Made by a program: the position numbers and the translations under genes
The notes under the pieces: model-generated
The model's input: the letters and a program-made list of their open reading frames with translations, nothing else
Told to the model about the DNA's origin: nothing
Databases searched by the model: none
Source: Nemertoderma westbladi
Taxonomy: Eukaryota > Animalia > Xenacoelomorpha
Direction of reading: 5' to 3'
Length of the DNA stretch: 64,000 nt
NCBI GenBank assembly: GCA_032718475.1
Contig: JAUCBJ010006895.1
Location: 91,790 to 155,789, forward strand
Part shown: piece after piece, positions 13,459-61,477 of the stretch
Layout: each line of letters opens with the position of its first letter
Position numbering within the stretch: position 1 is the stretch's first letter

Positions 13459-14662
13459 CGTAAAAGCTTTTGCGTAATTAGCCGGTTATTTTCCCTTAAA
13501 GTACTCTGTAGTTGGTTTGCCAGGCATAAAGAGGCCGTGTCCTTGCTGTACTGGTGTTTTAGAGGACATAAAAGTCATTTCTTATGTATTTGTACTGTAT
13601 TTGTACTTTAGAGGACATAATCCACAATCTCGTGACGCAATAGCTGGATACTTTTGAAAACAGTGTCGCTACCATGACGACGGCTAGCAGCTGATATTGC
13701 CACGTCGACGTTTCTTTGTTTCTTTGTTCTCTCGTTGTTCAGGTTGACCAATCAGAGCGTTTGTTGTCTCTGTGTTGGAGGTGTATACAGAAACTCAGTA
13801 GTTCAGTGTTATGTTTTTGCCCAGAGCCTAAGAACCGGCTTTTGGCACCTCCGTGTTTTCAGTTTTTAGTCTTACACTAGTAGGCTTAATTATAAGGACA
13901 TATATCCTTTAACTGCAATTTCGTAATCACTGCTGACACACGGCTTTTAATAACTGCTGAAACTGCTAAAATTTACCTGCTCAATCGATACTGTATACTG
14001 CTATTTGTTGTCGGTTATTCATTATATTTGTTGATGAATTATTATATTGGAATAACGAGAAATAACCCCGAAAACCCAATATTCTTGATATACCGAAGGT
14101 AAGAGAGAAAGGTTACCAATAACTATTGTGACTTATGTTAAAGTGGTTTGAAGTGAATCTAATGTTATTTGATAGACCCTACATGAGTCAGTCTGTGTTC
14201 CTTTTATATGTGACTAAAATCAGTGAAGATTGGCAGATTAGTGTGCAGTATTGTGCAGCATTGTGTATGAGTGAGTCTGTTAAAGAAGCAATTCCTAAAG
14301 AATGCGCCATATATGTGAATTATAATTGAGCCATATCGTTGTGAGTAGTTTAAGTCATAACTCTGTTTATATAGATAAAGCGCCACGTCCTAAAGGAACT
14401 GTTAATATTCCCGAAGGTGAATAATATTGTCAGAGATTATATAATACTGTCAGTCGAATAATACATTAGGCTTACATAGCAATAAAAATTAAGCCGTCGA
14501 ACCCAATCTCCTGGGAATATCCAGCGGGTGAATGATCGCGCACAGATTGGTTTCGACTAGTGTAGTGAATCAAATACTTGTCATAGGCTAAAAAGCGATT
14601 TATTATCTAGAAGACATCTTAATTTGGCGGGTTAAACTGCCAAAGGTCTGAAAGCGCGAACA
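13459..14662 (+). repeat. 5' LTR of element 1 (CG...CA)
   Basis: Matches 27242-28445. I see about 3 substitutions, including the first base (C vs T). Confidence 0.97.
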
Positions 14663-14674
14663 TTAAAGGATATA
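14663..14674 (+). promoter_or_regulatory. Non-tRNA primer-binding site TTAAAGGATATA, complementary to LTR 13901-13912
   Basis: Abuts the LTR end. Perfect 12-nt reverse complement of TATATCCTTTAA in the LTR. No TGG. Confidence 0.75.
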
Positions 14675-16931
14675 GCTTCTTTATTGCAGTAAGCAATAAA
14701 GTTGAAAATACCGGTCAACCGGTAAACTTGAACCGGTACTTCTGTAGGTCAGTAGGCCCAACTGCCAGAACCGGTACTGCTGTAGGCCCGTAGGTCCAAC
14801 TGCCAGAACCGGTACTTCTGTAGGTCCGTAGACCTAACTGTCCCAACCGGTACTTCCCGTATAAGTACATTAGTATTATTCGATTTGATAGTTATATACC
14901 GCTAGGCCTTAATAATTAATCAGGGACTGCAGCCCTGGTTTTTTATTGAGATTTTTACTTATTTCTGTCAAATTTTATTTGTTTGTAGGCCAGTATTGAA
15001 CAGAAGGCGTGTAAGCCTGATCAGATTGTACAGACAATTTGTAGGCTGAGCTGTTGTCTGATTGCTGTTAAGTCTGACCGGATTGCAGTGTGTGTAGATC
15101 ACCTGTCCGATTAAGTACGGTTAGGAAGTAGGGGCAGCAAATGCTGTAAGGTAAACCCCCAACTAAAGAATAAGTCGTACTACTGGGTTAGAACGCATAC
15201 TCCCTAATCATTTCGGAGTCTGCATGTCCTGTAGTTTATTTAGGCTTGAGAGTAGTCTGCCATCGTTTAGTCTGTACTTTGTTTGCGTAAGTCTGTACGG
15301 GTAGCGTATAATTTTATTTAGATAATTTGTAGGCTGGATAGTTGTCTGGCTGTTATTAGGCCTGAGCGGATTGCAGCGTGTGTAGATCACTTGTCCGATA
15401 AAGAACGGTTAGGAAGTAGGGGCAGCGAATGCTGTAAGGTAAACCCCCAATTAAAGAATAAGTCGTACTACTGGGTTAGAACGTATACTACCTAATTATT
15501 TCGGAGTCTGCATATACCGTAGTTTGTTTAGGCTTGATAGTAGTCTGTCAGTGTTCGGTCTGCATTTTGTTTGAGTAGTTTGTACGCATAGCGTAATATT
15601 TATTATTCAGGGTTTATGCGATTATTCGCAACATTCATTCCCCAAGTTTGTTCCTACAGTAATTGTGTTTGTTATACATACCGCTATAGTTAAATTAACC
15701 CCGGTACTACACGGGCTGCTTGGCGTAGGTAAAGACTGGTGATTTTGTGCATCGGTCACTCCAGCAGATGCCGTGGTTCTTTTAGCTGTTCAAGTATATT
15801 TAACTACTGATTATCTGTTGTACAAGTACTCGTACCTAATTTAGGGTTTAGTGTACAGTACTTTCCGAAGTAATTAGTGTAGACATTATATTTGTGTTGT
15901 AAAGTGGTTGATAGGCACGTTGCGTTCGATTAGCTCTATTAACTTCTAGGTAGGAACACTCCGTGATACATAACGTAGAACCTATAGCGATACGGCTATA
16001 GGTCGTCAGGCGGTGGTATTTTCCTATCTGGACAACGCAGTGTATTTACTACTACTTATTATTTCAAATACCGTAGTACCCTGTCCGTTGTAATAACCAG
16101 ATTTCTAACCCTTTGTTAGGCTGGTTTGTAGACTTCTTGTAAAATTACCCTAAAAAATTCGTATTTTGTGTTTTTGTAAATTTTTGTGTTTATTTAGAGA
16201 TTGTAATCTCAACCCGAATCGTACGTAATTTGTAGTATTAAGTAACTTAGGTAAATTAGAATTATTTGTTTTAGTGTCCTATAAGTAACACTTCACTGAA
16301 AGCGTACCGCTTTGTGTAGTGATTACTCCCCAGAAATAATAACATTTATTTCAACATTGACAAAACCCATTAAAACGGGTATATATATATTATAAATCAA
16401 CTCAAACGATTTATAAATAGTAGGCCTGCCATACAACAATTAGGTCTCAATATCAGTTGGATTACTGCTCAAATAACGGTAGTAAAGTAAGTAAAGTAAC
16501 CAAGTAACCCTAAAATACAGAAATTCAATTATTTAAAATAATTGATATACCGGTATTTACGATAGGCCTATTATCTTTATTTCTATAAATTTAGGCTGAA
16601 ATTATACCGGTACTTATAATTAATTCTAGTCCAGAATTATATATACTACAAACTGTAAACTGTATACCGGTATTCCCGATAGGCCTATTATATATTTATA
16701 TATATTTGTGCTAAAATTATACCGGTATTCTGTGATAAACCTAGTCTGTAATAATACTTATATAGTTATATATACCATAAGCATACCGGTGTTCTAATAT
16801 ATTATATATATATATCCTACTATACTGAGTAGCAGTATCGGTAATTAATTACTAGGCTAGCAGTTAATACTAAGTTACTAGACTTGCTCAGACTGTAATA
16901 CAGCAGTAGACATTCAACTGTATACATAAAC

Positions 16932-19900
16932 ATGTCTGATACTAAGCAGAACCTGTCAGACAGTTTATTAGATGTAACTATCTGCGACTCAGATAGAGAC
17001 GTACAACCGTCTGGTCGTAAGTTCAGTTCACCTCCCACTGTGAGGAAGGTCATCCCTCCAGTAGTAATAACAGAACCTAGGCTAGTCCAACATCGTAGGT
17101 CTATCATAGGCACCCGAGCTCAGGTCAAGCGGGACCAAGAAGCAGCGGAACAGCAACAACCCGGGAGTCAAGAATTTATTCCTCAGCGGCCCAGCAGCTC
17201 CAGTAGTGAGGATACTGTAGAGCTGACACCCGAGCGCGGAGCAGAGATGACGGATGCGGTTTATACGGATCCCCTTCTCATCCTTCCTGCAGCCGTACTC
17301 ACTAGGTTATTGATCGCGGTGGAAGAACACCAGATCGATTGGGCGAGAAGTCAACGGTCAACTAGAGATAGTTATGCGGGATACACGAGTGAAGAACTGA
17401 GGTCTATTGTCGAGTCGCAATGGAACTTCCCCGGACCCGGACTCCCGTTTGATTTATCAGAAGCTGCCTGGGAAGACATACACCGGATGGGAGTAGCCAA
17501 GGAAACCATCGATCCAGCTGTGTGGAAGAGGTCCGCAGCCGGATACGCACAGGGATTCTTCAGCTCTATAGAGCGATTAAAAGAACAACTGTTTCAACAA
17601 CCTCAAGGACCTCAAGAGCAGGGATTGCTGCTTTATCAAGTTAGAGAAAGAATTCTACGAATCAGGCTAATCTTATCAGCCTTTGGGGAGGCTTCTAAAC
17701 GAAGACAAGACACGTCGTTGCAAGTTGCCGTAAAGACTTGGTTTCAACGGGTGAGTCTCCAGGTTCAAGGAACAGCTCAGTGGAAAGCTCAGCTGGAGGA
17801 GCGATCAACCCATGGAGAATCAACAGACGCTACTTTTTCCCAAGTGGAAAGTGAAGCGACGGCAGAGAAACCGCATAAGAGGGATGCCATTGACATCTAT
17901 CTGTCAGACTATCAACGTTTTTTAGGTGATGACGAGTTGAGGAGAAGGTTAGAGGGACTTAGCCCTAATAGTGAAGGAACCAAGCTTGTGTTGGATGCCA
18001 TCGATGTGGAAATGAGGGCTGCGAATCAGGCCAAATTTGATGAACAACTCCGCCTGACACGAGTCCAAGAAGAGCAAGTAAAGAAAAAACGCATAGAAGA
18101 CAGAAAGAAAGCAGCAGTGGTAGCTGCAGAAGCAGAAAGAAAAGCGGCAGCGGCAGAGGCAGCGGCAGAGGCAAAGGCGGCAGCGGCAGTGGCAGAAGCA
18201 AAAGCAGAAGCAGAAAGAAAGGCGGCAATGGCAGCGGCCGAAGCGGAAAGAAAAGCGACAGAGGCAGTGGCAGAAGCAGAACGGAGAGCAGCTGAAGAAA
18301 CCATCCAATTAGAATTGGAAAACATTCAGGAGAATCAAGACTGCATAAATAAACAGTTAACAGCTAGTAATATGCAGATGATGAATAGATCTACTCCCAA
18401 AAGACAGGGATATACATCATCTGAGGAAGGCGATACCACCGATACTGAAGGCAAAGGAAATAGATCTCGTCTAAGCAGACGTAAAAGAACATTCCACCGT
18501 CAGAAATTGCCTGATTTGCCTCCAGCTGTTAGAAGGCAACTAAATAACACCAACTTAGGTAGTACAGAGCCCACAGACCAAATAATTAAAATAGAAAGAC
18601 TCCCTACTATAGTAGATGAGCCTGAAGTAATTAGGCCTGTTCTTGAAATCACCCCTTCGGTGATAGACACACCTGTGCTCCCTGAAACTACCTCTAAATT
18701 CCCTCTGCATAGCACTAAGCTACCTGTGCCCCGTAGAACTGCCCAGGAAACAGTTCAGGTCCTGGACCCCGAGCGAAATATTCCTGATTTGTCGCCCGTT
18801 GTCCCTCGTCCGCCCGCTACAACGTTGGCGACTCCCGCTTCGGCGGTCGAATGGGTGGACGAGAGACGGCGGGGGATGGATCTCCTGCTCGGGCAGATGC
18901 AGGAGACGGTTCAGCAATTTAAGGGCACAGTAAGGGAAAGTAGGCTAGAGTTGCAAGAAGTGCAGCAAAGTATTGCGCTAGAACGCGATAAATTAGTAAA
19001 TACCCAAAAGGGTATACCACCACCCTCTGTAACAATGTGTCAACCTGTTAGGTCTGAAGTATCGCATGCGCAAGGTGTGGAGCCTACACGCATCTATACT
19101 GCTAGCGAAGTAGAAACTCCTATAGTGAACCCTATTAAGGGTAATTATAGACCTGTTGATAATGATATTCCATATAGAACTGATCATAATCCGAGAAATT
19201 TATATACCGATAACTCGATATTAAATAACACGATGGCCCAAGAAAGTTTTACGCGTCAAATGGCTAGAACCGAAGCCCGGCAAGCGGTAAAGGTGGGAGA
19301 GATCGTCAAGTTCAATGGAGATGAGATGAAATGGTTACCTTTTAATGAATATTACAAAGATAACATACAGAACTCTGTACTATCTAATGGAGAAAAACTT
19401 AGATACCTCATCGAGTGCTTGGAAGGATCTCCCAAGTTAATGGCGTTAAAGTTTATTGGACATCCAGACGGATTAAGACAAGTTTGGGACACACTAAACA
19501 TCAGGTATGGTAATAGGAATAATATCGCTAAGTATTTATATGCAAAATTGGTAGCGCCCAGAAAGTTCATCAGCAGTGGGATAATAGAGTTTTCCGATGA
19601 GATTCAAGAGATCTGTAGACAATTAGATTGGTTAGGTAAGTCTCATGAATACCAAAGTTCTATGGTCATTGGAGCTGTGGCTTCTACTTTACCGAAAGGT
19701 GGGGTAGGCACACGCTGGGATAAGAAAGTACTATATATGATGGAACAACAACGACGAGACCCTACCATGGCTGATCTCATGTCATTCTTGGATGGAGAAG
19801 TGAAATTGCAACTCCTCAAGCAGTCCCGAGAGAAGACACCGGAAAACAAGGTAAGTGAAAAACCCGTCTCTAGGAGAAAGGTAACACCAGTGTGTTATAC

Positions 19901-22900
19901 AGACGACGGCGAAAGCCAGACTTCTCAAGGAGAAGATAGCGGGAAAGACACTGATAGATCTTATTATGTCAATAAAATGCCTAAAGATCAGGTAAGTAAA
20001 TTCAAGTCTCGAGCAAATGACAGGAGAGAACAGGTAAGAAAAACTCCTCCCACGTCTCCCAAGAGAATTCAGGTGAGAAAGCCAGAAGAAAAGGCAAGTG
20101 TACACAATGTGACTCAGAATAAGGTAAGTAACATCAAACCAAAATGTGCGCTGTGTGACGGGACCCACCATTTGAATAGGTGTGATGAATTTCTAAAGAA
20201 ATCATTAACGGAGAGACGCGAAGTCATGTGGGATAAGCGGTTATGTTATAATTGCCTCAGACAAGGACACCTACTTTACTACTTTACTGGCCCTTCCCGT
20301 AGAACACTCAAAGAAAGACTACCGCAAGAGCGCGTCTGTCAGGTGAGTGAATGGGAAGATGATACCAGTGAGGGAGACAACTCAACTGATGGAATTCCAT
20401 ACTCCTCAGATAACGACGACGTTCACCAGCTTTTTGATGAGGAGAATACCATCGATCTCCTTAAGGAAAACGAGGCTTGGCAAAACCAAGTTAACTTATG
20501 TCAACTTCTCTATCCATCTGAACGAGAAGCTTATAACGACGAGTTAAATGACGTCATTGAGCGTTGCAATGCCAAGACTCGAGATGAACATGCTGTACGA
20601 TTCTTTACGCAAGAGGCGGTAGAGCCCAATTCCTACGATAAAGCCTTATCGGTGGAAGAGGAAAGGGCCAAGCAGATCCAAGAGACAACTACACGTTTCC
20701 TCAAAGATCAAGGAAGGTACGAAGTCGGTTTACCTTTTCGCAAGAGAGAACCGAAGTTCATCAATAACAGACCTTTGGCGGAAAAAAGAATCGCGCAACT
20801 CCATCGACGCCTTACGGCTAATTCTTCAGCTAAAGCAATGTATCAAACACAGCTGAAAAAATTTATTAATAAGGGATACGCGGAGAGGGTACCGGAAGAA
20901 ACACCTGTGACTGAAAGAACGTATTACTTAACTCACCATTACGTTCCTAAACCCGGTAAACCACACGAAGTGAGAGTAGTGTTTGATGGCTCCGCTCTTT
21001 ACATGGGTCAATCCCTTAACTCTGAATTGTTACCCGGACCCAACTTGCTTCAATCTTTGTTGGGAATTCTTTTAAGATTGAGACAATATTCTATTGCTTT
21101 CGCCTCCGATATAGAAGGCATGTTCTTATAAGTCAAGGTGTTAGATAGGGATCGAGATAGTCTACGATTTCTGTGGTGGCCCGAAGGAGACCTCAACCAG
21201 AAACCGGTGGAGTACTGGATGACCATCCAGGCCTTTGGGATAATCTCAAGCCCTTCCAACGCCTGTTCGGTAGTGCGCACTACTGCAGAGGACAACAGAC
21301 AGGCCTTCTCTAAGGAAGTGATCGACAACATCAAGAGAGACATATACATGGACGACAATCTGAAGTCCCTTCCATCAGTTGAGGAAGCCATTGAGGTCGC
21401 TAAAGGAACGGTAGAGTGCTTAAAAAGAGGTGGTTTTCGATTAACAAAATTCACCAGCAACTCCCGTGAGTTTCTGGAGTCGATCCCTGCGGAAGATCGA
21501 GGAGCGAAAGATCTCGATTTGATCAAAGATGATCTGCCAGAAACCAAGACACTCGGCTTGAAATGGGACACAGAGCGAGATATCCTGTTTTTCCAACTAA
21601 AACAGCGAGATAATCCAGTTCGAACCAAACGGATTTGCTTAAGTATACTGAGCACTTATTTCGATCCATTGGGATTTATTAGCCCAGTTATATTGATTGC
21701 TCGAAGTTTGGTACAACAAATGTGGCTTGAAAACCACTCATGGGACGATCCACTTAAGGGAGAATTATTGAAGAAGTGGATGAAATGGGAAGATTCTCTA
21801 CCAGCCATCGAGGATTTTATAATTTCCCGTTCATATTTTGGTCATGTTCTCCCTACGTATTCCTATCAACTCCATGTGTTTGGAGACGCCAGCGATATGG
21901 GAATCGGTATAGTAGCCTACCTAAGAGTGGAAACTCCGGATGGAATCAAAGTCGCCTTGGTTACTTCTAAGGCATTAATCAACAACAAGTTGAAAGTTCC
22001 TCGAGCGGAGTTAAAAGCGGCTCTATACGCTACAGCCATCGGCCGGAATGTAACCGAACAGATTGACTATACATTAGAGAAAACTGTCTATTGGACCGAC
22101 GCTTTACTCGTGTTAGAGTATATAACCAATGAAGTCTGTCAGTTCAGCGTCTTCATTACCAACAGGGTAGCCATCATACTTAGTCGCACGACGATGGACC
22201 AATGGAGACATTGCCCCGGAACGATTAACCCAGCAGACATCGCTTCCCGAGGAGCGACTCCAAAGGAATTGGTAAATACTCCCGAATGGTTAGGAGGACC
22301 CGACTTTCTCTATAGAGAAGAAGAAGAATGGCCTCCCCATCTCACAACAGCAGAGATCAGACAGGCCAAGGGAGCGGAGAAAGTTAAACCCAAAACTCGA
22401 GCGAGTAAATCGAAGTTGTTTAAACCTGCGGTTGATCTATCTGTATTATTTACTTCCGGAGAGGATGCTTTGGATCAGAAACCCACCGCCACGACTAAAG
22501 AAGTCTTGGAAATCCGTGACAAGGATTGGAAATCTGGAATACCAGATATTTCGCAAGGACTCTCACCTCTCTTGCAGAGAGCGATACGTCACTACAGTTC
22601 CTGGAATCGGCTCTGTAAATCTGTCACCTATTTAAAACGATGTTTTCATCATCGTTACTCCGGGACAAAGACCCATAGTGATGATGCTCCATCAACATCT
22701 GCACGAGTCCATGTTGTTAAAGATCTTCCCCAATACAAGGTATCCAACAGGTTTCTAAAGGAGAAGATCAGTTACCAGGAGCATGATGAAACCAACAAAC
22801 AGATGCTGAGACTTCTACAATGTTATGAGGATTCCGATAAGTATTTCCTGTTGTTAAGAAATCCACAGATGCGCTTAAGGGATCGCTTCTCTAGTACCAT

Positions 22901-24230
22901 GATAGATGGGTTAATACGTGTTGGAGGTCGGCTAACCAACGCCCCGTTATCCTTTGACACTAAGTTCCCCATACTCATCAGAAATCTTGACATACAGATC
23001 AAGATAATTGTAGATGTTCATAGCAAACTGTATCATGCTGGTAGAGAACGAGTTATGAGCGAAATTCGAACTCGCTACTATTTTTATAAACCTCGTAGGG
23101 CTCTGAACCAAGTTCTTAGGAATTGTATACCCTGTAGGAAAGCATTCAGTAGGCCTTTGACACAGCGAGAGGCAGAATTACCTAGGGAAAGAGTAAGCTT
23201 CTATGAACCACCCTTTACTAATACCGGTGTGGATTTATTTGGCCCTATTGAAGTATATCGTGCCCGGACTATAGTCAAGAGATGGTGTGTCATCTTCGTT
23301 TGTATGACTTGTAGAGCTATCCATCTCGATATGGTAAACGATCTATCCACCAACAGCTTCGTGTTGAGTTTACGACGACAGATCGCTCGCTTCGGAACCA
23401 GTAACACGATGAGATCGGATAAGGGAACGAACTTCATTGGCGCCAACAACGAAATTCAAGCTTACGTAAAGGACTGGAATAAAAGACAGGTGGACGACCA
23501 GCTAAGGATAACAGCGTCTAGCTGGACCTTCAACGCCGCCGACGCCCCTTGGTGGGGAGGAAGTTGGGAGAGATTGATTAGGAGCGTGAAGACTGCGTTC
23601 CACTTTATTGTGCCTTGTCGCGCTTATCTCACCGACGAACTATTGCGGATGTTAATGGAGGAAATCGCCGCCTATCTCAACGAAAGACCGCTTATGCCAG
23701 TCTCTTCAAATCCTGATTCCCTGGAAGCGCTAACACCCGCGCACTTTCTACTGAAGAAACCCGTAGCCATGCTCCCACGATCGGAGATCACAGACGGAGA
23801 CGAGTACTGCCGTCGAACCTGGCAACTTATGCAGTTGCTATCCCGTCGTTTCGCTGACCATTTCGAGAAACATTACCTGCCCACTCTACAACTTCGAACT
23901 AAGTGGTTTGCGCAGCAAGAAAACGTCAGCGCTGGAGACATGGTGCTTATTGTGGACCCCGATCTCCCACGTAAGCGATGGCAAACAGGACGTATCATCG
24001 AGACTTATATCTCGAGCGATGGTTTGGTGCGATCAGTAGAGCTCGTCGTCATGCGGCGGAACTTTAAGAAACCAGGGATAGTCTTTGAGACTCAACAGCT
24101 CAATCGCCCAGTGGGACGTTTATGTTTACTGGAAAGAGACAGAGAGCTCTCCGGAAACTATGGAAGGCAAGAAACTCTTCCCACGACTACTTCCCTAATC
24201 CAACCGACATCTAGGGACTCCCCAACTTAA
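16932..24230 (+). pseudogene. BEL/Pao gag-pol polyprotein, single frame with one premature TAA at 21129-21131 and the protease deleted
   Basis: ORFs 16932-21131 and 21138-24230 are in the same frame (MFL*VKV, expected MFLQVKV). Gag FNGDEMKWLPF and Zn knuckles. RT VRVVFDGS, LLPGPNL, YMDD. RNase H LHVFGDAS, PRAEL, WTD, NPADIASRG. IN HHCC, GVDLFGP, SDKGTNF, GGSWERLI. Confidence 0.95.
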
Positions 24231-25853
24231 TATCGTTCGGAGTGGGCGTGTGACTCTATTATTTTATATTATTTTATTATTTTTATATTTATGTATGTAT
24301 TACTATGTAATTTTATTATAATCGTTTTATTTAATTTAGTAGAATATTATTTAGCGATTATTTTGTAGAATAGTGCAATATATTCGTGTTTATTACGTAA
24401 GTAATTACTTATATTATATTTAGTGAGACGGCGAAGAAATAATTATTTTTCTCTTTCCTTACTGTCCGTATTATATTATAAATACGTAACTACAGTAAGA
24501 TGAAATGTCCGTACTTATTAAAGTACAATAAAGCCACTACTATATTTAAGTATTATTGGTAGGCAGAGTATTAGGAATGCAAAGTTCAGATCCTCGTGTC
24601 TCGGCTAAACCAAGCTCTGGGTAAACCTTGGAAACGACTTGCCTCTTCACACTGACATTGCTTCGTGCGATATTGCTCTCATACCGTATATTAAATAATA
24701 CATATAGTAGCGTGATGTCCCTTTAACAGTAGCGTATAACGCAAAATAAATCTGTTAAACCCTTTGACCATCTGTAATTCTAGTCGATTAAGATATCGCG
24801 GCACCCACCGATATACTTGAAAGACAAATTCTAGAATCAGTGGTTAACGTCCCCAGACAAGTTCTGGAATAAATCGGTGCCCATCTCAAATATTAATTAT
24901 TTAATATTTGCAAATCTAATAAATCAAAATCTGTAAAATTCAGATCCTTCAACAATTCTAGTCAATTAAGATATCGTAGCATTTACCGATATTCTTAAAA
25001 AAGACAATTGTCATAGAATTAAGGATCTTGTGTCTCTAGACATGTTCTAGAATCAAAATATGTCCATTTAATTATCAAATAATAAAATTTCAGGGAATAA
25101 ATTTAAATTCATGCCTTTTAATGAATTTAATAAATTGCCATTTTTACGCAATTTATAAAGTTCCCAAAATTCCATTAATTAATAGATCAAGGGAGCGGAG
25201 ATTTATCTTATCATGCGTATGAGTGTGTGAAAGTCTCCCAAACATAGTCAATAGCCGATAAAATTCATAAAGTCATGTATAAAACAGAACATTGATTATT
25301 AAAGAATACTATTAAATAACATCCCAGATCTGTATGCATTGGAATCACCCTAATTCTACCGCTAGCTTTGCATAATGTCACCATAGCAACAACCACGCTA
25401 GAATTAGAATTGAGTTAAAAGAACAATAGAAAGCTTGTCCCATTGAATAGCATAGGGAATAAATAGCGCACTGCTAGTATCCAAGGATACATAATAATAC
25501 AGTGACATTCTGGAAGGCATTGACTAACGGACAAATGGCCCGAATGTGCGTAGTTGTGACCAGTTGTGTGGTATTTGTGAGTTTATAGGTGAATGTTACT
25601 GCTAAGGTGTGTTTACAGTAGCTAGTCGCAATCGTAAAAGTAACCTAACTCTCCAAGGAAAACCTGAAGTACATCCAAGCCTTTGGGACGGACAGTCGAG
25701 TGACTTGTGCCGGTTGTCGTTGTCGTTGTGCGGCTACGTCGTTGGCGAAAGTACAGCGGCGACGACACATCGGCGCTGAGGATCTCGTACTGTCCAGGGG
25801 TTAATTGGAGTAGGCAGCGACGCTCGCTAGCCTAAATATAAACTCCTTATAAT

Positions 25854-27163: not shown

Positions 27164-27233
27164 CTGTTTAGAGTATCTTTATATTTTAGAAACTGTGATT
27201 TGTTATATTTTATAGACTTAAATCCCATTTTCT

Positions 27234-27241
27234 GGGAGCGG
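27234..27241 (+). promoter_or_regulatory. Polypurine tract of element 1
   Basis: GGGAGCGG directly before the TG of the 3' LTR. Identical in element 2 at 46827-46834. Confidence 0.75.
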
Positions 27242-31160: not shown

Positions 31161-31265
31161 AATAAAGTTTATATTTTTTTACTATTAATTATTATTAAAT
31201 AATTGATCATTATTAATTTTAAAATTAATAATTATTAATAAATCAATTACTCAAACTAATTTCAG

Positions 31266-31392
31266 GTTGAGTCTTGTAATCGGATGTTTTCTAGATGGGA
31301 AAATCTTAAGATTCATTTACGGAACCACACTGGAGAAAGGCCCTGCCCATGCACAAACCCAATGTGTTACAAAGCGTTCAGTAACAGCTCAG
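31266..31392 (+). CDS. Exon encoding GLIS/GLI-type C2H2 zinc-finger segment ([42 protein letters not shown]), possibly a pseudo-exon
   Basis: TTCAG acceptor and G/GTACGT donor. Translation closely resembles GLIS1/3 [20 protein letters not shown]...KAFSNSSD. Confidence 0.75.
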
Positions 31393-37157: not shown

Positions 37158-37170
37158 GTAACAGTTTATA
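37158..37170 (+). promoter_or_regulatory. Non-tRNA primer-binding site GTAACAGTTTATA, complementary to LTR 36377-36389
   Basis: Abuts the LTR end. Perfect 13-nt reverse complement of TATAAACTGTTAC. Confidence 0.75.
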
Positions 37171-43696: not shown

Positions 43697-45307
43697 TAAC
43701 ATATGGAGTGGGCGTGTGACTATATCATTTTATATTTGTTTTTATTTTATATTTATGTATGTATTATTATGTAATTTTATTATAATCGTTTTCTTTAATT
43801 TTATTTAGTAGAATGTTAGTTTAGAATATTTAGTAAATTAGTGCAATATATTAGTGTTTATTACGTACATAATTACTTATAATATATATTTAGTGCGACG
43901 GCAAGAAGTAATTATTTTCTCTTTCCTTACTGTCCGTATTATATTATAAATGCGAGACTATAGTAAGATGACATGTCAGTACTTCTTAAAGTACAATAAA
44001 GCCACTACTATATTTAAGTATTATTGGTAGGCAGAGTATTAGGAATGCAAAGTTCAGATCCTCGTGTCTCGGCTAAACCAAGCTCTGGGTAGACCTTGGA
44101 AACGACTTGCCTCTTCACACTGACATTGCTTCGTGCGATATTGCTCTTCTACCTTATAACAAATAATACATATAGTAGCGTGATGTCCCTCTAACAGTAG
44201 CGTAAATCGCAAATAAATCTGTTAAACTTTTGACCATCTGTAATTCTAGTCGATTAAGATATCGTGGCACCCACCGATATACTTGAAAGACAAATTCTAG
44301 AATCAGTGGTTAACGTCCCCAGACAAGTTCTGGAATAAATCGGTGCCCATCCTAAATATTAATTTAATATTTATTAAAATCTGTAAAATTCAGATCCGTT
44401 AAAAATTCTAGTCGATTAAGATATCGTAGCACTTACCGATACTCTTAAAAGACAAATTTCATAGAATTCAGGATCCTATGTCCCCAGACCTGCTCTGGAA
44501 TCCAATTGTGTCAATTTAACATCAAATAATAAAATTCACGGGAATAAATTTAAATTCATATTCGAATGAATTTCATAAATTGTCATTTTGCGCAATTTAT
44601 AACATTCCCAAAATTCCAGTAATTAATAGATCATGGGAGCGGAGATTCATATTGAGTGCGAGAATCTACAACATATAGTCAATAGCCGATAAAATTTATA
44701 AAATCATGCATAAAGAGGATATTGACAATTAAAGAATTACTATTAAATAACATCCCAGATCTGTATGCATGAGAATTACCCTAATTCTACCGCTAGTTTT
44801 CCAAAATGTCACCATGGCAACACCCACGCTAGAATTAGAAACAAGTTAAAGGACCAATAAAAGCTTGCCCCATTGCGTAGCATAAGAGTATACATAGAGC
44901 ACTATTAGTATCCAAGGATACATAGTAATAACGTGACATTCTGGAAGACACTGACTAACGGACAAATGGCATGCGTGTGTGTAGTAAGTAATGATTGTAT
45001 GGAATTTGTGCGTTTATAGGTGAATGTTACTACTAAAGTGTGTTTACAGTAGCTAATCGCAATTGTAAAATAGCCCTAACTCTACTGAGATAACCTCAAG
45101 TGGATTCAAGCCTTTGGGACGGACAGTGGTGGGACTTGTGTCGGTTATCGTTGTCGTGCTGTTGCTACATGTTGGCGTAAACACTGCGACAGCGGTACAT
45201 CGGCGCTGAGAAACCCACTGTCCGGGGGCAAAAGGCCTAGTAGGCAGCGACGCCCGCTTGCCTAAAATATTAACTTATATTGATATTAATAAACTCAGAT
45301 AACAGAT

Positions 45308-46756
45308 ATGACGGAATTGATAGAAGATGACCTTGGTATTAGAGAGCGATATACTCTACCTTTACAAGCGTTTGTGGATAGCTTGATACGCGGTGAAGCC
45401 GATCCGACTATTACGGAGGACGATGGTCGTTATATCGAACCGCCGATGTCCCAAGAGCAACTTACGCGTGAATTGGACTATCGAAAATTAACCGCTCGCT
45501 ATACGCATCGTAATGGTACGTATATGGACTTCTTAACTACCGGCCATCCTATCGATTTACATGATACGGACGATGTAGACACCGAAGGGGAAATGGTTCT
45601 ATTTAAATATCATACCCAGCGGCGTCGTAACGATAAACCGAGAATAGATCACGAAAATTCTATTCGTAACAGACTGGGAAGACGAACCAATATGCCTAGA
45701 ATCTGAGGAGATTCAGCCTATCGCGCCCGGAACAACGACAACGATTACATCCTAGAATGGTATCAAGGTCCACAGTGTCTTACTGCGTATGATTATCGCC
45801 ATGCCAATTATGTTTCTCGACAACGTTGTCGGCTGTGCGCATCGAGAGACCATATTACGTCTATGGACACCAACGATCTTTGTTCCTATTTCCACGAGCA
45901 ACCGTCGATGGAAATCTATTGTGCATATTGTCGTCTTAATAATTTGCACATTTTTGCCGTCTGCCCCCAATTTATGACTCAATGCCATCATTGTCAATTA
46001 AAAGGACACGCCAGCTTTGATTGTCCCTTTAACCATGATTTAGAGAGCGTAGATGAAATGATTGTACTACGTTATATAAGAGCTTGGGAAGCGAACGCTG
46101 ATTTACATTGTGACTCACGCCATCGCTATTATCCCGGACGCGCCTATGAAGGAGTTTATGCGTTCCATCCATATTTGTTTGCCTCCGTCGAGCAGAAATC
46201 GCGCCTATCAAGTTATGAACTATTGAAGCGCGTTGGAGAATGTATTTCAACCAAATATGTGCGTAAATTTCTCAGGAGCATTAATCCGAGTGACATCCAG
46301 TCTTACAACTTAATAAACTTTATCCGTCAAGACCCTGCCTATGGAGACTTATTCGTCAACTCACACCCTGAGTTACAAGAAGTATATCGACGGCCTTACG
46401 AGTATCGAGCCCGCGAACGCGAGTTAGAAAGAACCATTAAACCAAGGAAGTTTCTAACGGCCTATGGTCCACCCACGGCCCTCGTTCAGACCACTCGTAA
46501 AGGACCCGTAAGAGCGGCTGTCTTGAAACGAGCTCTCAAAGCCGTTAGACCCCTCTCCCCTGACGTTGATGTTAATCAACCCGGTACTTCGACCGGCGGA
46601 TATACCGATCGCAATCCCATACCTTCTGATGCAATCATATTGCACCCTTCACCCAGGAGTTATAGCCCTCCTAGTAAAGTGGCTCGCCCCAAAGAGAAAA
46701 GGACTCTTGCTAGCTTCAAAAAACTGCGTAAACGCCGTCCGCGCAAGAAAGACTAA
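45308..46756 (+). CDS. Accessory ORF3 of 482 codons with one in-frame TGA (45704-45706), three CCHC-like knuckles and a basic C-terminus
   Basis: ORFs 45308-45706 and 45863-46756 share a frame and the gap between them is open (GDSAYRARN...CRLCASRDHITS). Confidence 0.75.
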
Positions 46757-46834
46757 CTGTTTAGAGTATTTTTGTATTTTAGAAACTGTGATTTTGTATA
46801 TTTTATAGACTTAAATCCCATTTTCTGGGAGCGG

Positions 46835-48102
46835 TGTAAAAGCTTTTGTGGGATAACTGATACGTTTGCCTTTGCTGGCCAGTTCCCCCCCAGGCGCTGG
46901 AATACTCTAAAAAAGGTTTTCTAACTGTATATATATTCCCCTCGCCCGCAAGGTACCTTTACAGGTGTTTTAACGGACATAAAAATCATTCTGCTATATA
47001 CGTGTTTTAGCGGACATGGTAAGACAAAAAACTTGTAATGCACCAACCACCTTTCACAGCTTAGCCGTGATGATTCATATTACGACATCTAGCAGCTGGT
47101 TGCTGACATGGAAACAGCCATTGGCCGCGTGGTTCTTTGTTTGGCTTGGGCCAATCAGGGCGGTTTTTCCTGTCGACGTGTAGCTTTTCTGCCGATCATA
47201 AGGAGAGTGTTCAGTCTTACTGTTTTTTACTTGATACTTTGTTGTTATTGCTGTCTAAGCCAGAAACACCGGCATTTTGGATAGATACTGCTGTACCGTA
47301 AACTGCTTGAATTATCGAAAGTATAAACTGTTACCTTAACTCACTAACGAATCTTAACTAATTGATCAATCTTAATTAACATACTCACTTAATTTAATTG
47401 CATTAATCATATTGTTTGTACTGTTATTTTACCGTCAGTTATTAATTGTAAATATTTGTTGATGGAAATATTGCTATTTGGATAATACGGATAAATCACC
47501 CAATTCCCAATTTTCTTGATAACACTACAGGTTAGAGAGACCGGCTATACATAACAATTGCGATTTATATTAATGTGGTGTGTATTGAATCCAATGTTAT
47601 TTAGCAGACCCTACGTGAGTCAATTACTGCTCTCTTTATGTGTGATCAAATATACTGACTGTCGGCAGAATAGTGTGTATGATTGTGATTGGTAACAAAG
47701 TATTTCCTAAAGAATACGCTTTATACTTTAATCATAAGCAGTATCGTTGCGTTTTAGTATAAGTCTTAGTTCTGTTTAAATAGATAAAGCGCCACGTCCT
47801 AAAGGAACTGTTAATATTTCCCGAATGCCAATAATATCTGTCAGAGATTAATTATTAACGATCTATCGAATAATACATTAGGTATACACTGCAACCTTAC
47901 ACTGTAATAATACAATTCAAGCATCCGAATTCAGTCTCCCGGGTGTAGATCCATCGGGTGAATGATCGCGCATGGGCTGATTTCGGCTAATGTTTGGCGT
48001 ATTAGCATAAATTATTGTCGTATGCTAAAGTGGTTTTAATTAACTAAAAGACATATAAATTTTGGCAGGTTAAACTGCTAAAGGTCTTCAAAAGCGCGAA
48101 CA
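46835..48102 (+). repeat. 3' LTR of element 2
   Basis: Direct repeat of 35890-37157, followed by TSD AGAGT. Confidence 0.97.
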
Positions 48103-49429
48103 AGAGTATTCTGGCTCTTTTCTCTTCAATGCTGTTTGTATTGAGTGTGAGTGTTGTAGTTCTAATGAAATTTGAGCTGATCAGTTCACGATATGTCGGC
48201 TTGGCAAGTGAAATACGCGAATATTAAAAGTTTAGTGCAGAAAGCAGGTCAGGTAAGGCGTAGGATGAGCGTGCGATGCTGTAGCCACAAGAAATGCCGC
48301 GATACGACGCCAGGGGGCGCACATTGCTGAACATTGCAATCCGACAAATTAGTTGTAGAAAGCGACTAGGACAGTTCAATATGCACAGGATGGTACCGAC
48401 ACACAACCGAAGTTCAGCAATCGAGATTGGCACAAGATTGGCGACGTGGTAAAGAGTGCAATTCCCAACATATGGGCCAAGGTTTAGTAAACCTCTTAAC
48501 GATTTGCGGTAGAATACATCAAGAGCGTCACGATCAGTGGAGGTTAGAGAACCTATATTGAATTTTAATCAATATGTGGTAGCTGGTACAGCGAGGGAGT
48601 CCCATAGTTGGAAGACCACCTTAGGAGGAAGCCAGCGCGTTGTCCAGCCTCTAGTATGAAATGTTTGAGAGTAGTAAGCTATCAGCCTGATAGAATCATT
48701 AAGGATTACTTTGGAGTTCGATTAACTTTTAATGTTGTATCCTAAGAAGGTAAGGGCAGAACTTCTTACAACAAAAGATCCACGTATGTTGATAGAGCAG
48801 GGTTTATGACATGGATTTTGGATGCTTTCGACTACAATCCATGAGGTTTTAGTGGGTTCAAAGCTAAGACAGACCGCGTCTGCTTTGTCACTTACAATCT
48901 TTTCCATACGTTCGAGATTAGTAGCCAAGGTGCTAAGAAGGAGGAAGTCATCGGCGTATACTATGGCGCCTAAACACACAGGGCCGACACGAGAACCTAA
49001 GTTGGAACTCTCTAGAGCCGCAGTTATATCAGCTGTGTATAAGTTAAAAAAAGTTGGTGATAGTAGAGAACCTTGGTTTAAACCTTGGGCTACATGTATG
49101 CCGTTACAATCGATGCTACCATTGAATTTGAGAAAAACTATACCACAAGTGTAATATGAGTAGACCGTAGCTGCGATGTGAGGGTTGACTCCATGGTCCA
49201 GCAGGTTTCAAATGAGTGTGCAGTACGCAACATTGTCGAAGGCCGATTCTATATCTAGCTGAAGCAGGTACACTGCGGAACTTTTGGATCTATAATGCTC
49301 AATACATTCCAGCAATGTGGCGATTACTGTGTCAGTGCCTTAACCCTTTTTGTATGCAGTCTGGTTTGTATGGGTGATGCAAGTGTATAAGTACTTTGAA
49401 AGGATAATGTGTTCAAGAATCTTGGCGAA

Positions 49430-49981
49430 TGTTAGCGAATCAATTCCGCCTCACCAAACCCCATAAAGTGAGCCGTTAAGCAATATTGGGAACACGAGGT
49501 TGATTACCAATATCAACCCCGTGTCACCCCAACAAAGTGGGAAGGAGAAACATACGCACAATAGGGGTCAGGGGTTACACCCCTGAAAGAGAGAGAACAC
49601 CAAGGGCGAAGGGAAGCACTTCAGGGGAGGTAAAAGGGTTATTAGCCAATGGGGGGAAGGCACCGGCTGAGTAATGTAACAATGGCCAACCGTGCAATAT
49701 ATATTACCGGTCGTTGTGTATTCCATTCAGTTATCTCAGTGCAGTCACAGCAGTACGGTGACAATTAAGACCGTCGCCGCTGTCACCCATATTACTGGTC
49801 TATTAACGTGTATTACCGCTATCTGCTATTGTACCTACATCTGTACATTGTACCACATATATATCTTATATCATTAACAACGACACTAGAACAACACAAA
49901 CTCTTTTCCAACCACACGGTGCGGCCTGACGCGTACATAAACGCCACCGGATAAACCGGGATCCTCTCGGATCCCGTCACA
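49430..49981 (+). repeat. 5' LTR of element 3
   Basis: TG...CA. TATA-like AATATATA near 49696 and TCAGT about 30 bp downstream. Confidence 0.95.
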
Positions 49982-49990
49982 GTCTTAATT
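49982..49990 (+). promoter_or_regulatory. Non-tRNA primer-binding site GTCTTAATT, complementary to LTR 49763-49771
   Basis: Abuts the LTR end. Perfect 9-nt reverse complement of AATTAAGAC. Confidence 0.6.
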
Positions 49991-50014
49991 CTAGGCCTGC
50001 TGCGACTGCCAAAG

Positions 50015-53000
50015 ATGAGCCAAGGGGGAGAGACGACACCGCCGCGGACCCCGGACGACGATTTAACGATCCGCGAGACCGCGACGAGACTGTACCAACC
50101 CACGACGCCGGATACGCCGACCACCCGCGATCCGGCAACCCAAGAGAAGGGGGGCCGTCTACAACGAGAAGGGAGAGACGAGTCGAGAGGGGAAAGAGAC
50201 GAGTCAACACACAGTGGCGGTCGACATACCGATGTCGCCGGCCAGCCACAGGCCGAGGGCGACGGACGGCCCACCGGAACGGCAACGGTGGAGCCGCCGG
50301 TATGACGCCGGACCCGGAGAGATGGAGGAGATGTCGGCGATGAGGACGTCGGGGTCAGCAGCCGGCTCCGACGAGCCTACACCGCGACCCGGCAGCAGTT
50401 ATGAGGAGCAAAAGGAGGGGCCCAGATAGATCAGGTGAAGTTGAAGAGACTGCTAGGTGAGTCGAACAGACATTTTGCTTACCTAATGCGTCTTGGGCAG
50501 GAAGAACTAGCCGAGGAGAGAGCGAGAGGGGTTGCCAGCGAACTGTCTGATCTATGGGAGTGAAGGGGTATGCAGCCTAGTGTAGTGTACATAGGGCCAT
50601 ACTTAGTCGATACCCGGGGAGTAAAATTAGTGGGTTGGAGGAAACCGCAGGAGGGCGAATCCGAGGTTAGCCCCGAGGATTCGGTCTCGTTGGTTGGAGA
50701 AAGTTCCGGGAGGCGGGGGAAAGTTGGTAGGACGGAGGGGCGACGGGAATCCGTCGCAACCGATAAGTCTGCTACATCCTCCGCAAAAGAAAGAAGGGTG
50801 CGGGAGATAAATCTGGCGTATGATTTAGAAATTGCGGAGCTAGCCCAGAGTGTTAGAGAGTGGGAAAGGGAGGATAGAGAGAGAGCCGAGGAGTGTAGAG
50901 ATCAGGAGAGAGAGATAGAGGCAGAGCGTGAGCAGGATGATTTGCGTGCCAAGCTAGAGAGGGTCACACAAAATCAAGCCAAACTGAATCAGCGCCGACT
51001 AGAACTGGCGCGGTTGGGACGATTAGAGAGTGAGACCCCACTTACAGGCACCGGGCGAGAGAACCAGAACTGGTGTAGCCGTACGGGCGGGGGGGGGGGG
51101 GTAATAATAGTACGTTAGAAGTAGTTAATATTAATAGTACCGTAGTGGATAACCCTAATCCCTTTATTACAGGAAATATTTTACCTGGTAGTAGTAATTT
51201 AAATTTAAATACAAATAATTCAAATAATAATATTAATTCAAATATTCAGAATAATTCAAATAATTCCAATTTAAATAATTTAAATAATAATCCCGTTTCA
51301 AATTCTAATAATTTAATTGATTTAACAAATAATATTGGGAATGGTGCTATTAATATGAGCGTGTCGGACGTACATAACCCGGCAGACGGGGGCCTGGTAG
51401 GCCACGTACTTAGTAGGCAGGAGGTGGCGGGGTTGAGCCAACCCAACGGCAGCCTGGTAGGCCACGTAGTTGGTAGGCAGGAGGTAGCGGGGTTGAGCCA
51501 ACCCGAGATAGGCCTGATGGGCCACGCAGTAGTAGAGAGAGAGGCGGGGGTGAATAGACCCAGCCGTAGTAGAGACAGTGCCTCGACTAGAGAGGGGTGT
51601 AGATACGAAGTAAGAGATAGTGAAGTAAGATGTGGCAAGTGGGGGGGAGCTACGGGCGCCCCACCACGGAGGATCAGTGACGAGAGAAGGGGGGTGGAGA
51701 ATGTCCGACAAGAGGGACGCAGAAGTGTAGTAAGAGATAGTGAAGTTAGATGCGGCGGGTGGGGGGGGGGGGGCTACGGGCACCCCACCACGAGAGATTT
51801 GTAGCGAGAGGGGGGGGGGGGGGGGTGCAGAGAGTGTCCCACAGGTGTCGGCGGGTAATGCGCGGGCCAAGCTAGGTAAACCGCAACACCCGGCGATGGA
51901 GAGTAATAGGGGGATTGCGAGTATCCCCAGCGGCGTGCGATCGAGCAGAGAGAGACAGGTTGACGTCGCGAGAGGGCGGACGAAGCGTCGAGCCCGATCA
52001 GAAGAGGAAAGAAGAACAGTGGAGTTTAACCGGGAGGTCGACGAGAGATCTCACGAGAGGGAATACTGCACTGAAAAGAGAAGAAGAGAAGATAGTAGAA
52101 AAAATGTTGCCGCTAACGATAAGGGTGCGAGGACGGATAGCGGACCGTCGATAGTAGAGATGGAGTTAGGGGGTCAGTGGGGTCGAACTTCGGGAGATTG
52201 CTGTCGCCCTGGAGAAACGCACCGCACACCAAGAGAGGGGTACAGGACGTACCGATGCAAAGTCGAGAACAGGAGAGGGGATCGAAGAGAAGCTTCCCGA
52301 CGGGATATAGCTGCCGATCGAGAGTGCGGTAGTCGAGGGGAGATTCGAGATTCGCAAAGATTAAACTTCGGTTCGAAAGGGCACATGCAGACTGCAGGAC
52401 ATACTGTAGGCCTTACTGCACATACTATTATAGGCCATGCTGGGAGAGATAGAGTAGGCAATAGGGTAGCGCGAACGACGGGATTAAACCCAGAAGCCGC
52501 GGAGTACATACCGGTAGGTAGGCAGGAAGTGGGTAGGCCTATATCGGTACAGCAGCATGACTATAATATACAGGGACATAACATACATCCAGGGGAGGGG
52601 AGATTTATTGGAGATAGATGTATGGGCCCCAATATATTAGCATCAACCCCAGCAACCAAACATACCAGCAGGGGGGGGACAGGGTGACATTCCCCCATCA
52701 CAATATCGACAATATACCCCAATAGGAGCAAGAACATCGAACTCCCTGGACGAGAACAGGTCGTGCGGACAGTCGCTACCACACGCGACCATACAGGGGG
52801 CTATAAGCCCACGGTTGGCTGGTAGCAGGGCCACACCGTGGCAGGGACAGAAAGAAATTAACACCATAAATAAACACAATCCCAATATACCCAGTAGGCC
52901 GAGTACAGACAACCCAAACACAAAATTGGTGCATATAAACCTACGCGCAATACGTGAAGGACTATACAGGAAACGCTATAATCCAGGATTCGAATGTCAA

Positions 53001-53641
53001 TTACATCAGGACGGAACCCATAAGACCAGGAGTTGTAAGCACTGGCAAGCGTTGCCCAAACAGGATCGTATAGCCTACACAGACGCAAACAGACTATGTC
53101 ATCGATGTGTGGTAGAAAGACACAGACCCGGAGAGTGTAAAGAAACAGCAACTACAAGCACGACAGTGGCAAGAAAGAAGAGAAAAGTACTACCCAAGGA
53201 AGTAACAGTTAGAGAGTGGGCGGGGGAGAATGGATATCCCAGCAAGAATCGGTATGAGATAGAGAGGAGCGGATGGCAAGATGTCCGGAGGACAAACCGG
53301 AGGAGCGTCCGGTGCAATATCAGGAGTGTCCGGAGGAGACGCCGGTGCGGTTGAGAGGCATACCGACAAGGGGGAGGCCGAGTAAGAAGAAAAGATGGAA
53401 AGGGAGAGGATGTGAAAGGACTAGACCAGGGGCAGAGAAGCCCAAGAGCAAACATAAAGGAGCCGGGAAAGTAGAAGGAGGCGTGTTGCATACGCACGCA
53501 GGACTGACACAGTGCGAGGGGGCATTACATGGGCAGACGTCGTGTATACTGAAGGACGAACGGGGGTCGTCGAGGCCTTTAATGCCAGCGCACATACAAA
53601 GGGGGAGACCAGCAGAGGTAGTATCTAAGAAAGTGTGGTGA
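50015..53641 (+). pseudogene. Fragmented gag-like reading frame of element 3
   Basis: Successive plus-strand ORFs, several broken at poly-G runs. Coiled-coil region, Asn-rich tract, 60-bp repeats and Zn knuckles. No pol. Confidence 0.65.
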
Positions 53642-55329
53642 AGAGTAAGAGGACGTATAGGAGGGCAGTGGGAGAGTGCCTACTGGAAGAAGGGGCACCT
53701 TAGAGTTTTAGTTGTCCAATATTTTGGACTGAGGGGGGTGGGAATGAGGGCGAGACGCCCTTCCCACGCAAAATAATTATTTAATTAAAAATAATAAAAT
53801 AATTAAATAATAAAGTAGGTAGAAGTTAGGTAGTAAGAGAGTAGTACCGTTAGTTAGTGTTAGAGAAGTTAGTTAGAGGGTACGTAGTACCGTTAGTTAG
53901 TGGAGTTAGTCAGAAGTAGTAAGAGGGTACGTAGTACCGTTAGCTAGTAGAGAGAGTTAGAGTAGTAAGAGGGTACGTAGTACCGCTAGTTAGTGGAGTG
54001 TTAGAGGTATAGTTAGTAAGAGGGTACGTAGTACCGTTAGTTAGAAAGTTAGTAGAGCAGTAGAGGGTTGTGGGCACCATAAGCGCCTCGTAGAAAGTAA
54101 TAGCAGTAGAGGGTTGTGGGCACCATAAGCGCCACGTAGAAAGTAGTAGCAGTAGAGGTTGTGGGCACCGTAAGCGCCACGTAGGAAGTAGTAAGCAGAG
54201 TGGTTGTGGGCACCGCAAACACCACGTAGTTTGAGTTAATAGGGGATGCGTTGAACTAAGTGGGGCACTGGCGTGATGACGTGTTTGATGTCAGAGCAGG
54301 GTATGTTAATTAGGGTGGGTGCCGGGTACGAGAGGTGCCGGGCACAAAAGGGGTTAGTAGTAGAGTTAGTTGAGTTAGTAGAGAGTTAGTAAGAGTTAGT
54401 AGTAGAGTTAGTTGAGTTAGTAGAGAGTTAGTAGAGTTAGTAAGAGTTAGTAGTAGTTCACATGATTAACATACCCACTCTGCCAGCATTCAGAGCATCA
54501 CGTGCAGGTGAGTAGACGTAAAGGGAGTAAGATGTAGATAGAGTAGAGTAGTAGAGAGGGCACATAGGGTGCCAGGTAGTAGAGTTAGAGTGTTAGAGGT
54601 AGTAGAGAGGGCACATAGGCTGCCAGAGAGTAGAATAGCAGAGACGGGCACATGGGGTGCCAGATAGTAGAGATAGAGAGTTAGAGGTAGTAGAGTAGTA
54701 GAGAGGGCACATAGGGTGCCAGATATTAGAGTGGTTGTGGGCACCGCAAGCGCCACGTAGAAGGAAGTAGTAGTAAAGGGGTTGTGGGCACCCTAAGCGC
54801 CACGTAGTTAGAAGAGTCGGTAAGAGTTAGAGAGAGTTAGTAGAAGTAGAGAATTAGTAGGAGTTAGTTAGACTTAGTAGAGCTAGTTAGAGTAAGAGAG
54901 TTAGATAGTTAGCAAGTAAGTAGTAGGTAGATAGTATGATAGCACAGGGGTAGCATTAGAGATTAGGGCCTTAGGGAGTGGCAGAGAGTAGAGAGTAGAG
55001 AGGAGATAGTGAGAAGAGCTGATGGCGAGAGAGAAGTTAGAGTGCGATTCAGGTGTGGGGAGAGTGTAAGAGTGGGGAGTTGAGTTAGAGAACGGAGCTA
55101 GAGTGGTGAGAGTGTCGGGGAAACAAAAATTGTGTGAGAGAAGCGCACGATCGGCCCGACACGAGACGCCAGAGGGTAGTGACATCATACCCATAGGGAG
55201 CAGCCTGGAAAGCCGACTCCAAGAAAATAACTCCACCCCACACCCGATAATAGATCGAGTTCCAGCGGAATTGAAGCGCACTTAGAGGTTGATGCTATCT
55301 TCTCACCGGGAAGATAGCATGGGGGGGAG

Positions 55330-55892
55330 TGTTAGCGAATCAATTCCGCCTCACCAAACCCCATAAAGTGAGCCGTTAAGCAATATTGGGAACACGAGGT
55401 TGATTACCAATATCAACCCTGTGTCACCCCAACAAAGTGGGAAGGAGAAACATACGCACAATAGGGGTCAGGGGTTACACCCCTGAAAGAGAGAGAACAC
55501 CAAGGGCGAAGGGAAGCACTTCAGGGGAGGTAAAAGGGCGACAACAGGGTTATTAGCCAATGGGGGGAAGGCACCGGCTGAGTAATGTAACAACGGCCAA
55601 CCGTGCAATATATATTACCGGTCGTTGTGTATTCCATTCAGTTATCTCAGTGCAGTCACAGCAGTACGGTGACAATTAAGACCGTCGCCGCCGTCACCCA
55701 TATTACCGGTCTATTAACGTGTATTGCCGCTATCTGCTATTGTACCTACATCTGTACATTGTACCACATATATATCTTATATCATTAACAACGACACTAG
55801 AACAACACAAACTCTTTTCCAACCACACGGTGCGGCCTGACGCGTACATAAACGACACCGGATAAACCGGGATCCTATCGGATCCCGTCACA
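55330..55892 (+). repeat. 3' LTR of element 3
   Basis: Direct repeat of 49430-49981, followed by TSD GCGAA. Confidence 0.95.
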
Positions 55893-61420: not shown

Positions 61421-61477
61421 TATAGTTAAATTGTCTATGCAGTCTTTGTTAGTTCTAAGTTATGGTGTAAATTTATA

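Follow-up and report, generated by a model that had tools for sequence, protein, structure and literature searches.

Self-priming of reverse transcription has been demonstrated for the long terminal repeat (LTR) retrotransposon Tf1, whose own RNA is cleaved by RNase H (PMC7175516, available in part), and has been proposed for Tj1, the sushi group, Tcn1, and the TAR lineage of Ty1/copia (PMC7175516, PMC4600332, and PMC6317226, each available in part). For the BEL/Pao elements, the Belpaoviridae profile of the ICTV (the international committee for virus taxonomy) describes an 18-nt primer-binding site (PBS) for tRNA-Arg or tRNA-Gly and a tRNA-primed replication that is poorly understood (PMC8742986). 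A 64,000-nt stretch of contig JAUCBJ010006895.1 from Nemertoderma westbladi (hereafter the window, to which all coordinates refer) holds three LTR elements, E1, E2, and E3, in which the PBS is the exact reverse complement of a segment of the element's own LTR. Judging from this complementarity, minus-strand DNA of these elements is fairly probably primed by an internal segment of 9–13 nt of their own LTR RNA. The original prediction made from this DNA stated that BEL/Pao elements are usually described as tRNA-primed, in agreement with the ICTV profile; it also gave Tf1 and the sushi group as the known self-priming elements, which is right as to the Tf1 precedent but omits the predicted TAR elements of Ty1/copia (PMC6317226, available in part).

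Complementarity between the PBS and the LTR

The PBS position lies directly after the 5' LTR; it and all the element features given below are on the + strand. In E1, positions 14663–14674 are the exact reverse complement of the candidate self-primer segment 13901–13912 (12 nt); in E2, positions 37158–37170 pair with 36377–36389 (13 nt), and in E3, positions 49982–49990 pair with 49763–49771 (9 nt). All three matches start at the first base past the terminal CA of the LTR, the register that priming demands, and can be extended by no base on either side. TGG, sought in the 20 nt following each 5' LTR, is absent from all three. The complements, their priming register, and the lack of a TGG-starting tRNA site had all been claimed beforehand, and all were reproduced.

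The matches exceed chance under two nulls. First-order Markov LTRs reached the observed match length in 9 (E1), 5 (E2), and 76 (E3) of 20,000 trials, and internal positions taken as anchor did so in 2 of 12,549, 1 of 9,640, and 13 of 5,311 cases, respectively. When each PBS was compared with the LTR of another element (six cross pairs), the best match was 6 nt. The weakest match taken alone is that of E3 (p about 0.004), and the joint chance of the three matches within the window is negligible.

E1 and E2 are related families, and their homologous sites coincide when the LTRs are aligned. Compared in register, the two sites differ at 4 of 13 positions, each difference being mirrored in the PBS, and the helix of E1 is one base shorter than that of E2 at its LTR-proximal end. 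E2 also holds a second, internal copy of its LTR end with the PBS (37242–37254), which differs from the LTR-adjacent copy at 2 of the 13 PBS positions. The LTR-adjacent copy is perfect, as would be expected, small as these numbers are, were the working PBS alone maintained in agreement with its site.

Recurrence in BEL/Pao relatives

An alignment of the E1 pol with 41 homologues led to 93 loci, 80 from metagenomes and 13 from genome bins. The main count comprises the 15 loci in which a second LTR copy establishes where the 5' LTR ends, including L059, retained because its sister L065 fixes the LTR end. Loci whose 3' LTR was cut by the contig end, was overlapping only, or was decayed were dropped (L006, L010, L014, L016, L024, L033, L038, L045, L050, L052, L055, L058, L062, L067, L073, L075, L083, L087, and L089); in L062, a self-match is absent at every candidate LTR end.

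Three of the 15 loci (L054, L070, and L092) hold a TGG site 2–5 nt past the LTR, and their self-match is just 3–5 nt. The remaining 12 have no TGG site, and 11 of them match their own LTR perfectly over 10–12 nt, in two distinct ways. In L048, L085, and the 3' LTR of L057, the match is contiguous and 11 nt long (null, 0–1 of 600). In the other eight (L003, L008, L044, L051, L059, L065, L081, and L084), which represent about six families, the 10–12 nt match exists solely across a GT..AG junction. The introns predicted in these eight loci are 67–451 nt long; their donors resemble the consensus and their acceptors are rich in pyrimidines. Random internal anchors within the same element gave such junction matches in 0–2 of 600 cases each. 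L081 and L084 show a compensatory difference at the end of exon 1, and L086, the twelfth locus without TGG, matches across a junction at 10 of 11 positions. As side observations, the LTRs of the self-matching loci L048 and L051 end in TA rather than CA, and L081–L093 are BEL/Pao elements within prokaryote genome bins (L092 in a Wolbachia record), most likely host DNA in those bins.

Together with the covariation of E1 and E2, these counts answer a test set beforehand, namely that complementarity be kept among relatives with different letters: four compensatory changes separate E1 from E2, and 11 of the 12 relatives without TGG are perfect. A scan made without regard to LTR ends was positive in 25 of the 61 loci covered, as against 25 of the 305 shuffles; some positives are surely false. 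It added L010, L023, L033, L038, L045, L058, L060, and L082, among others. The 3' LTR of L057 reads as if the intron had been precisely removed at the junction found in its own 5' LTR and in L033 and L082; since the two LTRs of L057 are just 88% alike, this contig joins two subfamilies.

Several features of the relatives bear on priming itself. At the longest register, 16 of the 20 elements have a primer ending in AC, and the number rises to 19 when L051, L081, and L084 are each taken one terminal A–T pair shorter; these 20 elements were picked after the matches were seen. Canonical poly(A) hexamers, present in 10 of 14 LTRs, all lie downstream of the primer end, as needed for strand transfer after a cut. 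In the elements without a spacer before the PBS, the polypurine tract (PPT) also abuts the 3' LTR, and those with spacers of 2–5 nt have 2–4 extra bases past the GG-rich PPT motif, its end being judged by eye.

The junction-spanning matches raise the possibility that, in a large group of animal BEL/Pao elements, the host spliceosome builds the reverse transcriptase (RT) primer from an intron-split LTR, and that E1–E3, L048, L058, L085, and one LTR of L057 have lost the intron; on the sequences alone, we give this an even chance. If so, only spliced RNA could start DNA synthesis. E1–E3 are the intron-less, contiguous form, possibly following intron loss: splicing gives no longer match in any of them (best 8, 13+1, and 5 nt, respectively, in a relaxed test), and no GT..AG joint was found in E1-family contigs among the 15 joints listed out of 30.

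Proposed mechanism

An exact complement in register, the compensatory changes, and the recurrence in relatives make self-priming likely. Under the proposed mechanism, transcription would start approximately 35–110 nt upstream of the segment, which would anneal to the PBS in the particle, aided by a weaker second helix upstream. The RNA would be cut at the 3' end of the segment, usually after AC and likely by the RNase H of the RT, as in Tf1, leaving a 3'-OH opposite the first base past the LTR, or after a 2–5 nt spacer in some relatives. Strong-stop DNA would copy U5 and R up to the cut and jump to the 3' LTR, whose poly(A) signal lies downstream of the cut. When the plus strand is then copied from the primer, the PBS would be rewritten, allowing site and PBS to change in concert. 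Many relatives would have the segment only once the LTR intron had been spliced out. The acidic residues of RNase H are invariant in the alignment, E1 included, and the zero Rfam matches within the window at the gathering score indicate that no known ribozyme is present in the LTRs.

The primer is likely to lie inside the transcript rather than to form its first bases. TCAGT motifs at 13795 and 13803 (E1), 36266 (E2), and 49727 (E3) precede the sites by 96–104, 109, and 34 nt, respectively. In E3, a TATA box at 49698 is followed 29 nt on, at canonical spacing, by the initiator-like TCAGT, and a second helix would form upstream of the site, where 49741–49753 is complementary to 49997–50009 at 12 of 13 positions (shuffle p 0.022), better than all 20 swapped upstream regions. 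Over 21 elements, the upstream second helix shows a modest enrichment (Fisher p about 0.001 with mononucleotide shuffles, the L086 row being slightly out of register), with 4 of 21 individually below 0.05. In the relatives, a complement that is present only post-splicing suggests that the helix forms between RNA and RNA and that further sequence precedes the primer. The earlier guess of an internal primer gains indirectly from the 8 of 12 junction-spanning matches and from the TATA-initiator spacing and second helix of E3, and loses from the predicted folding of E1. A hairpin is also predicted in E3 (stem 49756–49762/49773–49779), and its loop contains the segment. As general features, a stem between R and U5 and presentation of the primer in a hairpin loop, observed only in E3, were rejected.

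Several observations weigh against self-priming by an internal segment in cis. As to the model itself, it leaves the match length of 9–13 nt unexplained, and in the intron-bearing relatives the intron of the 3' LTR must escape splicing. As to folding, the E1 helix has a predicted pair probability of 0.93 for an RNA that begins with the site itself and of 0.00 from three upstream starts, and the values are 0.09–0.15 in E2 and at most 0.35 in E3, although folds of such long RNAs are unreliable and the loop–PBS contact of E3 would be a pseudoknot. A Tf1-like R-U5 stem, sought between the 25 nt after the primer and the 25 nt before the PBS, reached p <0.05 in 1 of 20 elements, and no general exposure of the primer site was found. 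E1 is the exception to the AC primer end. In E3-family contigs, approximately 75% of the depth holds another base at 49989, position 8 of the PBS (1338/1790 in X1 and 1003/1228 in X3, the two counted, X4 being without E3 coverage), and no change is listed at the partner position, which leaves a core of 7 bp; these contigs may come from E3 subfamilies whose site did not align. Finally, in the quick trees, one built with 49 of the 93 loci and one with 25, the long branch of E1 joins neither the TGG group nor, in the best tree, the self-matching group; forcing it together with the latter is not rejected (approximately unbiased test, p-AU 0.26). The proposal of a self-priming BEL/Pao lineage is thus strengthened by the recurrence in relatives and weakened as to the membership of E1.

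Alternative explanations

The same LTR segment might instead prime in trans, supplied by a second packaged RNA, a short LTR-only transcript, or a host-processed small RNA. Under this mechanism, the genomic RNA could remain unspliced and keep its intron while a spliced short RNA gives the primer. It would also fit the missing R-U5 stem, the poor folding in cis over 750-nt loops in E1 and E2, and the great abundance of LTR copies. However, the match is always with the element's own LTR and never with a neighbour's (at most 6 nt), even in defective elements that depend on a helper, which is simplest in cis, and we consider priming in trans unlikely.

The classic mode of Tf1, where the segment's first base is also that of the transcript and the capped first 9–13 nt serve as primer, would explain why the match length is near the 11 nt of Tf1 in all families and why the E1 helix folds only with a start at 13901. 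Junction-spanning primers, however, would then require a first exon of 3–7 nt, and in E3 the TATA box, the TCAGT 34 nt before the site, and the second helix all lie upstream of the supposed start, so that this mode appears quite unlikely.

The pairing could also act as a structural switch in packaging, dimerisation, or translation, the true primer being a tRNA fragment or another host RNA. Half-tRNA primers are known in Ty1/copia (PMC6317226, in the part available), and the ICTV calls the whole family tRNA-primed (PMC8742986). Nevertheless, each of some 20 distinct PBS sequences follows the LTR of its own element, the pairing ends in the priming register, and the relatives with a TGG site have no such pairing, all of which makes a switch improbable. 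Chance inverted repeats or functionless template-switch scars, for which only the modest p value of the isolated E3 match and the variable PBS position of its family speak, are largely refuted by the negligible joint probability in the window and the recurrence in 11 of 12 relatives without TGG and across splice junctions, and retain hardly any probability.

Structure of the elements and their neighborhood

E1, E2, and E3 all hold direct LTRs ending in CA, a 5-bp target-site duplication (TSD), and a PPT. E1 spans 13459–28445, between copies of the TSD GACGC (13454–13458 upstream). Its 5' LTR of 1204 nt (13459–14662) begins with CG instead of TG and contains CCAAT at 13748, the two TCAGT motifs, and AATAAA at 14481. 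The gag-pol region (16899–24230), delimited by open reading frames (ORFs), alignment, and Pfam matches (DUF1759, Peptidase_A17, Integrase_H2C2, and DUF5641), is defective: the protease region is absent, the RNase H and integrase regions are present, and an in-frame stop lies at 21129–21131 inside the RT. The PPT (27234–27241) abuts the 3' LTR (27242–28445), which the TSD follows.

E2 spans 35890–48102, with the TSD AGAGT (35885–35889 upstream) and a 5' LTR of 1268 nt (35890–37157) with CCAAT at 36206. Its gag-protease ORF (39431–43696) matches DUF1759, and its pol is homologous to that of E1 at the DNA level, although the RT, most of RNase H, and the integrase have been deleted. The PPT and 3' LTR (46835–48102) occupy 46827–48102.

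E3 is the shortest (49430–55892), with the TSD GCGAA (49425–49429 upstream), a 5' LTR of 552 nt (49430–49981), and a PPT and 3' LTR (55330–55892) at 55321–55892. It has no Pfam match and no pol, and holds a remnant of a gag zinc knuckle of BEL/Pao type at 52989–53160 (profile E 7e-8; tblastn E 9e-6 to P0027). The profile, built from 26 of 120 homologues, matches all three elements, in E3 by the knuckle only. A Pao-type RT/RNase H (PF05380) followed by an integrase is found in E1 and is absent from E3. The assignment of all three to BEL/Pao, as originally predicted, is therefore firm by protein sequence for E1 and E2 and weaker for E3, where it depends on the gag zinc knuckle.

The two LTRs differ by 3 substitutions over 1204 nt in E1, 1 over 1268 nt in E2, and 7 plus one indel over 552 nt in E3, and these few differences mark all three as recent insertions. 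The elements are thus young yet defective, and a helper would be required to mobilise them. The closest protein relatives are at most 44% identical, the named ones coming from marine invertebrates and fishes. The E1 family is highly repeated, with 42,446 aligning contigs from one public sequencing run. Sixteen pattern matches in viral contigs included no relative, and ARAGORN found no tRNA in the window and three among the 93 relative loci.

Other features were observed in the elements. The R/U5 region of E1 and E2 (14020–14662 and 36507–37157) is unusually long (approximately 600 nt), 73% conserved, and common to more subfamilies than U3, as seen from a depth step in the aligned contigs. It holds a conserved donor-like motif (14099 and 36586) that could yield a spliced mRNA without the PBS. 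The leaders (14675–16930 and 37171–39436) are 2.2 kb long and 85% alike, with a 288-nt duplication and many repeats containing ACCGGT. Between pol and PPT, E2 holds extra ORFs (45293–46756), with a homologous decayed region in E1 (approximately 25870–27160); one product of 349 residues is rich in Cys and His and has no Pfam match. In E3, the last 35 nt of the LTR (49945–49981), which contain a short perfect hairpin, occur in far more copies than the rest, at a depth approximately 20-fold higher.

Outside the elements, a long satellite in which units of 50 and 62 nt are mixed extends from 1245 to approximately 10000. Remnants of other retroelements (LTR-type integrase or RT, and non-LTR RVT_1) lie at 29349–31168 (−), 32485–33805 (−), 48103–49327, and 58183–61426, and these segments also include a 900-nt inverted repeat with DUF6451; E2 and E3 adjoin pieces of one non-LTR RT element (RVT_1).

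Significance and comparison with known systems

No paper describing BEL/Pao elements as self-primed or splice-primed emerged from literature searches, although Repbase Reports, GyDB, subscription papers, and supplements lay outside their scope and may hold a note, and no link between the priming of reverse transcription and pre-mRNA splicing was found. In two BEL/Pao surveys (PMC554778 and PMC3118150), the words tRNA and priming are absent from the main text, and the available portions of PMC3601003, PMC8220671, and PMC6934838 hold nothing on BEL/Pao priming. Should the proposed mechanism be true, a widespread part of BEL/Pao would be tRNA-independent and would represent the third self-priming superfamily of LTR elements, after Ty3/Gypsy, where it has been shown, and Ty1/copia, where it is predicted. 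Control through the supply of tRNA or through its fragments would not reach such elements, and an internal, often splice-built primer would couple reverse transcription to pre-mRNA processing. In addition, LTR finders that demand a tRNA PBS could miss them.

Compared with the described BEL/Pao elements, E1–E3 share the LTRs and PPT, the 5-bp TSD, the DUF1759 gag, the Pao RT/RNase H, and the integrase, to the extent that each element retains them. Unlike the Belpaoviridae of the ICTV (PMC8742986), they have no 18-nt PBS for tRNA-Arg or tRNA-Gly; they are BEL/Pao by protein but depart from the profile on this point. The TAR elements of Ty1/copia (Houba and Osr-1) and the plant Tcn1 chromoviruses resemble them in that self-priming is predicted from PBS–LTR complementarity, but these are plant elements of other superfamilies, for which no splice-made primer is described in the available part of the source (PMC6317226).

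The closest likeness is to Tf1, Tf2, Tj1, and the Tf1/sushi group, which have no tRNA site, a PBS complementary to approximately 11 nt of their own LTR RNA, and cleavage to provide the 3'-OH (PMC7175516 and PMC4600332, in the parts available); complementarity of the PBS with the own LTR in the priming register is likewise found in E1–E3. However, contrary to Tf1/sushi, which are Ty3/Gypsy chromoviruses, the Pfam matches and homologues of E1 are Pao-type, a stem between R and U5 beside the primer helix is not enriched in E1–E3 and their relatives, and the primer is likely internal instead of the first 11 nt, spanning a predicted junction in many relatives. E1–E3 thus hold a real, non-chance arrangement that likely works like the self-priming of Tf1 and yet lies outside the Tf1/sushi group, with a primer that is likely internal and, among the relatives, often splice-built.

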